A DNA stretch of 64,000 bases. Origin: an uncultured bacterium (GTDB taxonomy: Bacteria; Zixibacteria; MSB-5A5; UBA10806). Under the pieces are notes generated by a model, which was not told the origin of the DNA, ran no database searches, and saw only the letters and a list, made by a program, of their open reading frames with translations. Position numbers and translations under genes: made by a program. Shown here one piece after another: positions 27,817-31,700 of the stretch (position 1 is the stretch's first letter; each line of letters starts with the position of its first letter). The DNA lies in contig CBEUCH010000005.1 of assembly GCA_965541585.1 (NCBI GenBank), forward strand, positions 96,001 to 160,000. Direction: 5' to 3'.

Positions 27817-28470
27817 GTGGAAGGGACAAAGGATTTTGCGATGAATGGATACCCGCTAAAAATAGCCGGAATGAGTGTTCAGGAAATGATCCGATCCTCG
27901 ACCGCTGAAATAGAAATCAGCGATAACGCTCTGATTCGCCAGACGCTTGGCGGTAAAGTTAAATCCTTCAGGAAACTCGTTCAGAAGTATCAGAGACAAG
28001 CCGTTCTATTCGCTCGCGGCATGGTCGGCAATCCCGATGACGCTTACGATCTGTCGCAGGAAGCGTTTGTCAGAGTTTATAAACACCTGAACAGATTCGA
28101 TTCGTCGTATCCGTTCAAAGTATGGTTTTTTCATATACTCTCCAATCTCTGCAAGAATCACTTAAGACAGAGAAAGAACCGTCAGGCGGTGACAACGTCG
28201 ACAGAGATGACTGAGACGGCGGCGGCGCCGGAATCCCGGAGACCGGATATAGCATTCCAGAAAACCGAGGTTCAGCAAAAGGTATGGGAGGGGATCGGGG
28301 AGCTCCCTGAGAAGTTCAGGGAAATCATCATCCTCTGCCATTTCCAGGATATGTCATATGAGCAGATGGCCAACGTCCTTGATATTCCCCGGGGTTCGGT
28401 CATGTCGAGACTTTATTACGCGCGGCAGAAGCTACGAAAGATCCTGGAAAACAAGGGGGTGGCGTTATGA
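27817..28470 (+). CDS. ECF RNA polymerase sigma factor
   Basis: DLSQEAF, W.F.I..N.C.N, region 4 SYEQMA...GSVMSRL. Start uncertain. Confidence 0.92.
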   Translation: MEGTKDFAMNGYPLKIAGMSVQEMIRSSTAEIEISDNALIRQTLGGKVKSFRKLVQKYQRQAVLFARGMVGNPDDAYDLSQEAFVRVYKHLNRFDSSYPFKVWFFHILSNLCKNHLRQRKNRQAVTTSTEMTETAAAPESRRPDIAFQKTEVQQKVWEGIGELPEKFREIIILCHFQDMSYEQMANVLDIPRGSVMSRLYYARQKLRKILENKGVAL

Positions 28471-28913
28471 ATTGTGAGCAGGCCAGAATCCTCCTCTCCG
28501 GATTGATCGATGGCGAGCTTAATCCAGAGGAGAAAAAGATAGCTGGCGAGCATATTGCCTCCTGCCCCGACTGCAGGAAAGAATATGCCAGGTTGAAGAA
28601 TTTGAAGGAGGTTACCGACGATATGAAATATTTCGACCTTCCCGACAAGCTCTGGGCGGGCTACTGGCGGGAAATTTATAATCGTGTGGAAAGAGGCATC
28701 GGATGGATCTTTCTTTCCATCGGCGCCATAATTCTGCTGGCATTCATCGGCTGGCAGATACTCGACAATTTCTTCCTTAACCCCGCAGAACCCCTGTATT
28801 TGAAACTGGGGGTGGGGTTGCTTCTCCTGGGGTTGATAATCCTGCTGATATCGATTATCAGGGAGCGACTCTTTTCCCGCAAACACGATAGATACGACGA
28901 GGTGGAGATATGA
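28467..28913 (+). CDS. Zinc-binding anti-sigma factor (zf-HC2) with two TM helices
   Basis: MNCEQA...HIASCPDC; overlaps the sigma stop by ATGA. Confidence 0.9.
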   Translation: MNCEQARILLSGLIDGELNPEEKKIAGEHIASCPDCRKEYARLKNLKEVTDDMKYFDLPDKLWAGYWREIYNRVERGIGWIFLSIGAIILLAFIGWQILDNFFLNPAEPLYLKLGVGLLLLGLIILLISIIRERLFSRKHDRYDEVEI

Positions 28914-29230
28914 TTCTTGCGACTACCAATGAATTCCCCGCAAAGGAAATCACCGAGGTTCTCGGCTTGGTTCGGGGAAACACGATCCGGGCCAGACACT
29001 TAGGGCGCGATATAATGGCTCTTTTGAGAGGTATCGTGGGGGGAGAAGTCAAGGACTACACCAAGATGATGGCTGAGGCAAGAGAACAGGCCTTAGACCG
29101 GATGATTGCAGAAGCCGAAGCCCTGGGTGCGAATGCCATCACCGGTATCAGGTTTTCCACATCCTTCGTTATGCAAGGAGCTGCAGAGTTTTTGGTTTAC
29201 GGGACAGCCGTAAAGGTATCCGGCTCATAA
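28910..29230 (+). CDS. ybjQ: YbjQ/UPF0145 family protein
   Basis: VGGEVKDYT...AREQA...GANAI.GIRF...YGTAV. Confidence 0.92.
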   Translation: MILATTNEFPAKEITEVLGLVRGNTIRARHLGRDIMALLRGIVGGEVKDYTKMMAEAREQALDRMIAEAEALGANAITGIRFSTSFVMQGAAEFLVYGTAVKVSGS

Positions 29231-30081: not shown

Positions 30082-31038
30082 TCAAAGATGCATTCCGTAA
30101 CTCAGGCCGAATCTGGCCGTCCAGTCCTCTGTCAACTGGCTGCCATTGACATTCTGATAAATTGGTATCTCCAGATTGCTCCACAATTGCAACCCATGAA
30201 TGCCCCTGCCAAGAATGCTATAAGTAATCCCCGGCGAGACATAAATCCAGTCTCCCCCGCTGCTTGCGAAAACCTGACCGTCTCGTTTGTCTTTAGCTCT
30301 GTGGAGCGCATTCATGCGGAAGGAAAAATCCAGCCCGGATTGATTAGAGAAGATTAGCGAGTAAGCTGTGCCTATTCCGTATAGGAAAAAGGTTCCTGAT
30401 TTCGTTCCGTCATCTGATTCACTTAAGATAGGGCGGGCATACAGATTGGCGTTCGCGCTCCACGGTCCCTGAAGCGAGAAAACCATAGAGGCCAGAAAAA
30501 CCGGATCAACCGTCCCGCTGATGAAATTCTTATCGGAGCTAATCGGATTCTCAATGCCTTCTCCTACAGGGATATTGGTGCCGGCCCCCGCAGACAGCAT
30601 GGTCGGGGCGGCGAAATAGCCGAAGGACCAGAAGTATTGCGCTACCAGGGTCAGATCGCCAAATTTCGTGTCACTGTCCTGGACGCTGCCAAGATTAATG
30701 AAGTCCACGCTCAGAAGCGGAAGGGTAGCCTGCAAGGCCAGGCGGTTTGTGAGACCGTAATCAAGTTGCCCGGTATAGACCCGGGCGCGGGTAGCCTGAT
30801 CCATCGGGTTGCTCACAACTTCCGTGCCAGCGCGAAGATCAGCCCGCTTGCTGTAACTTCCCGTGAAGCCGAATTGAATATGTCCCTTGTGCAGGGCGCT
30901 CGATTCGGTCCTGCCGACCGGCAGGTGCGGTGAGCTTCAAAGGCCTCATTGACCTATGGCGACCTTAGCCAGCGGGATACTCAAGGCGATGGATGCCGCC
31001 AAGAACCATGCGGCTAAGTTTGTTGCCTTATTCTTCAT
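30082..31038 (-). CDS. Candidate selenoprotein: outer-membrane beta-barrel 'transporter' with N-terminal UxxU motif (318 aa)
   Basis: The frame of ORF 30082-30816 extends to ATG 31038 (or in-frame ATG 31083 with AAGGAGA SD) through TGA at 30946-48 and 30937-39: MKNKATNLAAWFLAASIALSIPLAKVAIGQ-U-G-L-U-SSPHLP...; SECIS-like hairpin; barrel motifs GDL, G...PVG, C-terminal RFGLSY. Confidence 0.8.
30910..30925 (-). promoter_or_regulatory. Bacterial SECIS-like stem-loop
   Basis: CCUGCC-GGUC-GGCAGG, starting after an 11-nt spacer from the second UGA. Confidence 0.75.
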
Positions 31039-31228
31039 TGAGAATCCCCCCGAAACTGCCCCCGATGCTGATTGCTGATGCATAATCTGATCTCCTTAAA
31101 TGTCCCATAGTGTGTCACAGTCCATCACTGCCGAACCTTGATGGCTTGCTGTGACCACCTCAATCTTCGGAGCTACAGGCCGCCCGCGGACGGCCATTTC
31201 CAAGTTGTCAGTTTTGTGGATAGCAGTT

Positions 31229-31282
31229 TCAGCCAAAAGGTTCCCCTACGCCGGCGGCCCTCAGGGTGGTTTCATCCGGTCC
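31229..31282 (-). repeat. Diverged duplicate of the thioredoxin gene 3' end
   Basis: Encodes GPDETTLRAAGVGEPFG* versus GPDEAALKAAGLGRPITGSS*; shares GGACCGGATGAA with 31345-31356. Confidence 0.8.
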
Positions 31283-31293
31283 GAGAGCTTCTT

Positions 31294-31572
31294 TCAGGAT
31301 GAGCCGGTTATTGGTCGCCCGAGACCGGCCGCTTTCAGGGCGGCTTCATCCGGTCCGCTATTAACGCAACAATCTGCTATCTTGCCATCAATCAAAACCG
31401 CCGGCACGGTGCGTATCCCCAGGCTCCTGGCCGCTTTCGCTACCCTGTCATCATTCATGTCATGCACGGTCACCTCGCATGACGGGCATGCCAGCCTGTT
31501 GACCATTTGAATTACCTCATTGCATGGGGGGCATCCGGCGCTGAAAATCTCTACTTTTCTTCTGGTGGCCAT
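31294..31572 (-). CDS. Small thioredoxin/glutaredoxin-like protein with six Cys
   Basis: VEIFSAGCPPC, CPSC, TVPAVLIDG, CC; AAGGAG SD. Confidence 0.88.
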   Translation of the reverse strand: MATRRKVEIFSAGCPPCNEVIQMVNRLACPSCEVTVHDMNDDRVAKAARSLGIRTVPAVLIDGKIADCCVNSGPDEAALKAAGLGRPITGSS

Positions 31573-31588
31573 AACTTTCTTCTCCTTC

Positions 31589-31649
31589 TATGGTTTGAAT
31601 CCCGATGCCGTGCGCGGCGAGCGACCTGGCCGATCGTTAGTGGTTTCAT
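31589..31649 (-). pseudogene. Vestige of a MerR-family regulator (first ~20 codons, frameshifted)
   Basis: GGAGG SD, then MKPLTIGQVARRA, one extra C, then GIGIQTI: the start of a MerR HTH. The rest is absent. Confidence 0.8.
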
Positions 31650-31668
31650 TTCAAGACCTCCACCCTGA

Positions 31669-31700
31669 ATAATACACCCTGTAGTATACTACAGGGTCAA
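31669..31700 (-). promoter_or_regulatory. MerR-family (CadR/PbrR/MerR-like) operator-promoter
   Basis: TTGACC-20 bp-TATTAT with perfect 22-bp palindrome ACCCTGTAG-TATA-CTACAGGGT at 31676-31697. Confidence 0.9.

Follow-up and report, generated by a model that had tools for sequence, protein, structure and literature searches.

The window, as the 64,000-nucleotide stretch of DNA analysed here is called, encodes on its minus strand an outer-membrane beta-barrel protein of the COG4313/Pput2725 fold that is very probably a double selenoprotein, its UxxU motif decoded via one SECIS, and that apparently constitutes an unlisted family of double-Sec outer-membrane selenoproteins. The gene stands behind a promoter-operator, a merR vestige and a thioredoxin-like gene, and all four elements, first proposed in a first-pass annotation, were found at their sites on that strand. 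The reading developed here, of a Sec-plugged outer-membrane channel in a reductase-less mer-type regulon that is induced in trans by a Hg-responsive MerR, is plausible as a whole, if slightly more doubtful than probable.

A sigma-70-type promoter is predicted at 31669..31700 (minus strand), with a -35 box TTGACC (31700-31695), a 20-nt spacer and a -10 box TATTAT (31674-31669). It overlaps a candidate MerR-type operator (31676..31697, minus strand), a perfect 22-bp palindrome with its centre 8 bp from the -35 box. In the available text of PMC5045206, MerR sites are given as 22 bp long with the centre 8 bp from the -35 box, as opposed to the 21-bp/7-bp arrangement of CueR or CadR, and mer promoters are described there and in part of PMC4551924 as combining a 19-20-bp spacer with a 22-bp dyad. 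The window promoter-operator has the long spacer, the 22-bp dyad and the 8-bp distance. Its 20-nt layout recurs before the intact merR genes of homologous loci and at the same site in congener G001, and similar dyads lie upstream of 19 of the 24 merR ORFs examined. The operator is one of eight perfect palindromes of at least 22 bp in the 3.52-Mb genome. A REP-like family of perfect 22-28-bp palindromes also occurs in this genome (C2:3594, C3:160418, C7:94970, C10:21681 and C23:34695).

The merR stub (31591..31649, minus strand) was identified by eye against homologous MerRs, since it has no family match. It comprises the frameshifted first ~19 codons: after ~13 codons that resemble the N-terminus of MerR the frame shifts, ~6 further codons follow, and the remainder is deleted. 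Judged by its sequence, this stub cannot regulate; the window module is therefore not self-contained, and control, if any, would be exerted in trans. MerR control as originally proposed thus agrees with the operator geometry, and its local cis regulator is a dead stub. Another contig of the same genome, C1, encodes an intact MerR above cut-off (155.9 versus 150.85 bits) with three Cys, and the best genome-wide match to the window operator is the dyad upstream of this merR gene (3 mismatches, against 5 for the next best). From this near-identity of the operators we infer that the C1 MerR most likely drives the window promoter in trans, and the window operator is probably still MerR-controlled. 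The C1 operon (C1:99466-103726) consists of merR, DF, thioredoxin, merT/HMA, lipoprotein, CC barrel and SagB-like dehydrogenase genes, with no merA. Its CC-motif barrel has the same fold as the window barrel, and its merT-HMA-like gene scores 112.9 bits, below the MerTP cut-off of 180.

Congener G001 has the operator, stub and thioredoxin gene at the same site with no barrel, and no MerR was found in this 89% complete genome. G007 has the thioredoxin gene only, and the site is empty in G002 and G003. Contigs from runs X1 and X4 have the stub replaced by 79 unlike letters of equal length between matching flanks; the related contigs come from two other studies and were aligned at 82% likeness, which marks them as relatives. 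Comparison of the congeners and related contigs indicates a drifting stub beside an operator and two genes that have been retained.

The thioredoxin-like gene (31294..31572, minus strand) encodes a 92-aa cytoplasmic thioredoxin/glutaredoxin-fold protein with six Cys (CxxC, CxxC and CC) that matches PF13192 at 31.6 bits (cut-off 24.8). Its six-Cys homologues adjoin merR, merT/merP, csoR or P-type ATPase genes, and by these gene contexts the protein is a general companion of metal operons, often without a barrel. A diverged duplicate of its 3′ end lies in the intergenic gap (31229..31282, minus strand; 37/54 nt identical), and contigs from runs X1 and X2 skip a 74-nt stretch at this duplicated tail. 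The duplicate was considered as a mark of recent barrel import, an idea weakened by related populations that link thioredoxin and barrel without it; the barrel may have been either gained in G000, the genome of the window, or lost in G001-G007. A weak scan of the gap found no terminator-like site, and the promoter scan covers spacers of 16-18 nt, so that it misses the 20-nt-spacer promoter.

The barrel gene (30082..31038, minus strand; alternative start 31083) encodes a 318-aa precursor. The start had been placed at 31083, however 31038 is likelier, because a 1-base deletion at 31038 in a related contig puts the upstream ATG out of frame and because homologue lengths agree with it, which widens the gap after the thioredoxin gene from ~210 to ~255 nt. 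A putative 29-aa signal peptide (30952..31038, minus strand), read by eye, ends in A-I-G, and the predicted mature chain starts with Q-U-G-L-U. AlphaFold2 models the protein as a barrel of 12 strands (pLDDT 90.7, or 86.0 with a narrower alignment) in which the N-terminal 16-17 residues fall below pLDDT 50 in both models. Foldseek returns Pput2725 at the top (E 6e-10, TM 0.70) and FapF next, the same entries that are matched by a profile search with the barrel family. The protein has no match in Pfam or NCBIfam (June 2026), and of six homologues scanned against PF13557 (cut-off 22 bits), two score 21.7 and 24.8 and four have no match. The 12-stranded barrel and a short segment before strand 1 are common to the COG4313/SphA/PF13557 channels (Pput2725, PDB 4RL8; FapF, 5O65-5O68), from which the window barrel differs in its two Sec at the mature N-terminus and its metal-regulon context, with an identity of 17-18%. 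Residues 1-14 of Pput2725 plug the lumen from the periplasmic side, and the characterised COG4313 channels carry hydrophobic organics, as described in sections of PMC4493636. The UxxU-bearing N-terminus of the window barrel may likewise plug its lumen from the periplasm; since these residues are poorly modelled, the position is one of analogy with Pput2725.

A search of 285 genomes of the phylum places the close UxxU barrel clade in 15, the own genome included, and in 14 of these the N-terminus is on the contig. Six metagenome loci were added, four of which show the clade N-terminus; the remaining two are one cut locus and one distant Cys form. Among the named homologues, the nearest bear the label candidate division Zixibacteria, from which the phylum is deduced. 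Beyond the phylum, the range of the barrel rests on truncated proteins in which the TGAs are not visible, one of them labelled Myxococcota, and all nine non-self protein matches are without the N-terminus. A related-locus search of genome contigs produced only three distant loci, the plasmid search gave two weak 'transporter' matches, one near nikR and chromate-resistance genes, and a 251-genome sample of the phylum of G285 gave no barrel match in a search that had no positive control.

Gene neighbourhoods were compared at 19 homologous loci, 15 of them with upstream context; the other four are uninformative (G132, where the contig starts in the DF gene, G136, L062 and L063). Intact merR-led operons contain the barrel in 9 of the 15 informative loci, a csoR-like gene precedes it in one (L061), and five have no metal-related neighbours (G197, G167, G200, G199 and G089). 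The merR-led loci show the orders merR-thioredoxin-barrel (L060, and G077, where csoR-like and merT-HMA genes follow), merR-DF-merC-(HMA or thioredoxin)-barrel (G175, G159 and G177) and merR-merT/HMA-DF-barrel (G134, G133, G135 and L064), and the barrel start overlaps the upstream stop or sits within about 70 nt of it. The association of barrel homologues with metal loci that the first-pass annotation proposed to look for is thus borne out. Its interpretation of the genes as a metal module is in part sustained by this association and by the double Sec; the self-contained character falls away, and the five homologues without metal neighbours count against it. The UxxU rows form one clade on the tree (100/97), on which the merR label needs three changes, and the clustering of merR-linked rows indicates few independent linkage events. 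MerR-like genes (E 1e-36 or better) occur in 12/15 barrel genomes versus 18/270 others (Fisher test, p 7e-11, a value that is overstated owing to the non-independence of kin and is given no weight here). The Cys-free barrels form a third COG4313 clade (L102, L110 and L113), located in operons of the MerR family that also contain HMA and merC or merF-like genes, and the regulators at L102 and L106, which are without the first Cys, may sense another metal. On the plus strand of the window, ECF sigma-like, zf-HC2 anti-sigma and ybjQ-family genes stand in a row (27817-29230) that is conserved in relatives. The ybjQ-like 'heavy-metal-binding' gene (28910-29230) was rejected as a part of the module, being on the other strand and conserved in relatives that are without the module.

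It is conceivable, and on balance unlikely, that the barrel is a real selenoprotein whose selenols serve as a redox or diselenide gate for a non-metal channel, or repair thiol stress, and that it hitch-hikes in merR operons, with the window promoter a weak orphan. The five loci with no metal-related neighbours agree with such a gate, as do the dead local merR in G000, G001 and related populations, the hydrophobic organic substrates of COG4313 channels (PMC4493636, in the sections available), the thioredoxin-fused one-Sec sister subfamily in non-metal contexts and a UxxC thioredoxin-like selenoprotein candidate next to the barrel in genus g66. However, the barrel has been recruited into at least three layouts of merR operon, with tight junctions between the genes, two other COG4313 clades are also found in MerR-family operons, and the window operator is still a perfect dyad while the adjacent stub decays. 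The balance leans slightly towards a barrel that handles the metal itself.

The metal can be narrowed towards Hg by the three-Cys MerR and the merT/merC neighbours, as far as sequence allows. The barrel-linked MerRs score best on TIGR02051, at 128-142 bits, below its cut-off of 150.85, and in 6/6 regulators scanned the Hg MerR model beats those for CueR, ZntR and CadR/PbrR by 20-40 bits. Cys spacing alone does not exclude Pb or Cd sensors. The three Cys found in the MerRs of Bacillus and Tn501 are retained in the linked MerRs, along with an 8-residue loop, a combination tied to Hg in the accessible portion of PMC4551924. A regulon that answers a different or broader set of metals, such as Cu(I), Ag, Cd, Pb or As, with the barrel as a general soft-metal channel, is improbable, and it has several neighbours to recommend it: csoR-like genes adjoin the barrel in L061 and L066, a Cu-type ATPase converges on it in L067, L062 includes an arsenite methyltransferase, the six-Cys thioredoxin adjoins csoR and a P-type ATPase in Hymenobacter, and no merA, merB or hgcA was found that would justify Hg traffic. 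Against it stand the lead of the MerR model in all six regulators, the Hg-type Cys and loop, the 22-bp site 8 bp from the -35 box (as in the part of PMC5045206 cited above) and the merT and merC neighbours. In our reading of these sequences, Hg is probably the main inducer.

No match to an HMA domain, a heavy-metal P-type ATPase or MerA lies inside the 64-kb window, so that the earlier statement that merA and P-type ATPase genes are missing holds for the window; the genome has merR and merT-HMA elsewhere, one merT-like gene being seen, on C1. MerA scores above cut-off in 2/285 phylum genomes (G199 and G200) and in none in which the barrel is merR-linked, in a survey that scored five candidates per genome and all candidates in 17 genomes. 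In G199 and G200, merA belongs to merR-merT/HMA-merA operons and the barrel is elsewhere in the genome. The best MerA match of the own genome reaches 381 bits (cut-off 454) and is without the C-terminal Cys pair. In none of the 15 barrel genomes was hgcA found, for which reason a feed of Hg to methylation in these genomes was rejected, nor was merB, in a search without a working control. Single absences are weak in draft genomes, yet the merA-less pattern is not. The other merR loci inspected are mostly merR-DF-merC or merR-DF-merT; many of them include the six-Cys thioredoxin, and both merA and the UxxU barrel are missing. Modules of the merR-DF-merC/merT-thioredoxin kind without merA are common in the phylum (L091-L118), and the gene that follows merR or merT almost invariably belongs to the DF family (NF049942, of unknown function). 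A Burkholderia plasmid (L130:4001-5609) carries a six-Cys-type thioredoxin, merR, merT, merP and a GDCCVxC (seleno)protein gene, with no merA in 8 kb.

The window module resembles a mer operon in its MerR-led design, with the long-spacer promoter and 22-bp dyad, and in the merT-HMA or merC genes of the homologous loci and C1. Unlike a mer operon, the system, taken with these loci, has no merA or merB that could be found and has DF and six-Cys thioredoxin-fold genes and an outer-membrane barrel added, and in the window its local merR is dead; the window unit is also without the MerT/MerP/MerC uptake genes that are present in homologous operons. In its working, the module would correspond to that half of a mer operon which serves uptake and sensing, and it is not a member of that class, having neither MerA nor a cis MerR. 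Hg import without a reductase is expected to be harmful, which counts against the Hg reading, and selenolates bind Hg with high affinity. The barrel gene would be an accessory member of a mer-type regulon without mercuric reductase, in which the C1 MerR, which also leads the DF-thioredoxin-merT/HMA operon, would run the window promoter. On exposure to Hg(II), the selenol pair would bind Hg species that reach the barrel or pass through it, and would hold the Hg or pass it to HMA/MerT/MerC, while small cytoplasmic Cys-rich thioredoxin-fold proteins may form the Hg sink in place of MerA. Hg detoxification without MerA is discussed as open in PMC8261052, thiol-dependent Hg reduction in an anaerobe is reported in PMC12282025, and a paper on MerP/MerT-mediated resistance is cited by title in PMC12484752.

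The Hg reading is favoured by the variety of merR-led layouts, which show three or more gene orders and include merC, merT-HMA, HMA, DF or six-Cys thioredoxin genes, and in G199 and G200 merA itself stands behind a merR-merTP of this type. Against this, these two merA-owning genomes are among the five loci without metal neighbours, most merR operons of the phylum are without the UxxU barrel, G001 keeps the operator and thioredoxin with no barrel, the linked MerRs stay below the MerR cut-off, the known COG4313 substrates are hydrophobic organics (PMC4493636, as above), the plug is positioned by analogy, and the independent merR-linkage events on the tree are few. A more far-reaching form, which we regard as speculative and rather doubtful, is a reductase-independent Hg defence, in which a diselenol plug of a MerR-induced channel would capture neutral Hg species or Hg(II) in the envelope, perhaps for good in the form of Hg-Se, DF and six-Cys thioredoxins would replace MerA, and COG4313 barrels would be an unrecognised mer component recruited three times in the phylum (UxxU, CC and Cys-free).

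The selenocysteine assignment rests on two in-frame TGA codons (30948-30946 and 30939-30937, minus strand), conserved in homologues, and on a single bacterial SECIS hairpin (30910..30925, minus strand) with a 6-bp stem and a GGUC loop, which starts at a distance of 11 nt from the second TGA and 20 nt from the first. All 18 homologous loci with a visible N-terminus have TGA at both positions, never TAA or TAG, and in each of the 18 the signal-peptide-like segment is followed by Q or G and the first TGA, then by A or G, L and the second TGA. As their true stop, 17 of these barrel genes, one near-duplicate being omitted, have TGA in 4 cases, TAA in 6 and TAG in 7. The 6-bp GGUC-loop hairpin follows 11 nt after the second TGA in all visible loci, and in a one-Sec sister subfamily (3 loci) the same hairpin follows 11 nt after the single TGA. 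In a 21-row alignment, 92.5% of hairpin cells are paired with 13 double-change cells, 0/500 shuffles pair as highly and slid registers reach 25-57%, figures that are inflated by the relatedness of the rows and by a structure drawn from the same rows. A sharper control, independent of the covariation test, is provided by the four-fold codons: 3 of the 26 conserved ones keep their third base (94-100%), and these are exactly the three under the hairpin, the other 23 ranging from 29 to 81%. Genome-wide, a SECIS-like hairpin follows 26 of 123,017 TGA triplets. The loop starts with G, as the guanine rule stated in the available text of PMC13582414 requires. The genome has selA, selB and tRNA-Sec (selC) above cut-off and a selD that itself contains Sec, read by eye from the ORF. 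All 15 barrel genomes have selA, a weak test of co-occurrence because selA is present in 258/285 phylum genomes anyway. No CxxC form was found inside the UxxU barrel clade, which therefore offers no direct Sec/Cys column, and in distant barrels the mature N-terminus, directly behind the signal peptide, has CC, CxC or CG motifs.

That one or both TGAs are not Sec, and are read as Cys via tRNA-ReC or are true stops of a decayed or re-initiated gene, is very unlikely. In its favour, tRNA-ReC occurs in about half of the UXXU-hydrogenase genomes (PMC13582414), the hairpin is further from the first TGA (20 nt) than from the second or from the TGA of the one-Sec subfamily (11 nt), and no CxxC form was found in the clade, but the own genome has just one tRNA-Sec-like gene above cut-off and one ordinary tRNA-Cys, with no tRNA-ReC seen, stops other than TGA never occupy either position in the 18 loci, all of which have an in-frame signal-peptide-like segment before the first TGA, and distant relatives have Cys motifs at the mature N-terminus. 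The UxxU motif proposed in the first-pass annotation is therefore well supported as double Sec by the 18/18 conserved TGA pairs, the covarying SECIS and the sel genes. For UXXU group 4 [NiFeSe] hydrogenases, which likewise have two UGA three codons apart and one downstream SECIS, the portion of PMC13582414 consulted proposes one SECIS for both UGAs and allows that tRNA-ReC may insert Cys. The barrel is an unrelated protein, and in its one-Sec sister the register of the hairpin is that of the second UGA.

A COG4313/PF13557 barrel is absent from the 119 selenoprotein families in Table 1 of a 2026 inventory (PMC13188914), and no Sec barrel is mentioned in the available sections of PMC12013277, PMC13326102 or bioRxiv 10.1101/2022.07.06.499078. 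The literature searched, which covers Haft and Tolstoy 2025 through the PMC13188914 table and not the BSepDB family table, makes no mention of Sec barrels as members of mer operons. Sec is a presumed soft-metal ligand, as in the barrel, in known envelope or metal selenoproteins (the UxxU metal-binding protein NF041115, the MerT selenoproteins PF02411 and NF045683, the FCYXU TonB-dependent receptor NF049945, the GSU2204 MtrB/PioB barrel NF041027 and the SAO system), some of which share the UxxU motif or an outer-membrane location with it. All of these have other folds, none being COG4313, and the window barrel has no match to those models.

Gene callers cut the UxxU barrel family short at its N-terminus. 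The one-Sec and two-Sec barrels form a natural pair in which to ask by what means a single SECIS serves two UGAs at a spacing of three codons. The MerR-led module without merA is common (30 MerR-like versus 2 merA in 285 genomes) and would be missed by surveys that count merA. Two questions are made testable, namely the route by which Hg passes the outer membrane and the means by which anaerobes that have no mercuric reductase withstand Hg.

The one-Sec sister barrels (L050:1111-2379 in G048, L056:385-1707 in G201 and L080:7247-8560 in G199) have a fused C-terminal thioredoxin-like domain, and that of G048 is flanked by genes for iron-sulfur repair and for a di-haem peroxidase-like protein. 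In genus g66, the gene directly after the barrel (L072:6031-7323 in G135; similar in L070 and L071) shows TGA read-through into a UxxC thioredoxin-like domain; it is a second, exported selenoprotein candidate with no NCBIfam match at 1e-10. A further selenoprotein candidate in the own genome (C9:98414) has an in-frame TGA after an 829-codon ORF, followed by a hairpin with the same 11-nt, GGUC-loop geometry.
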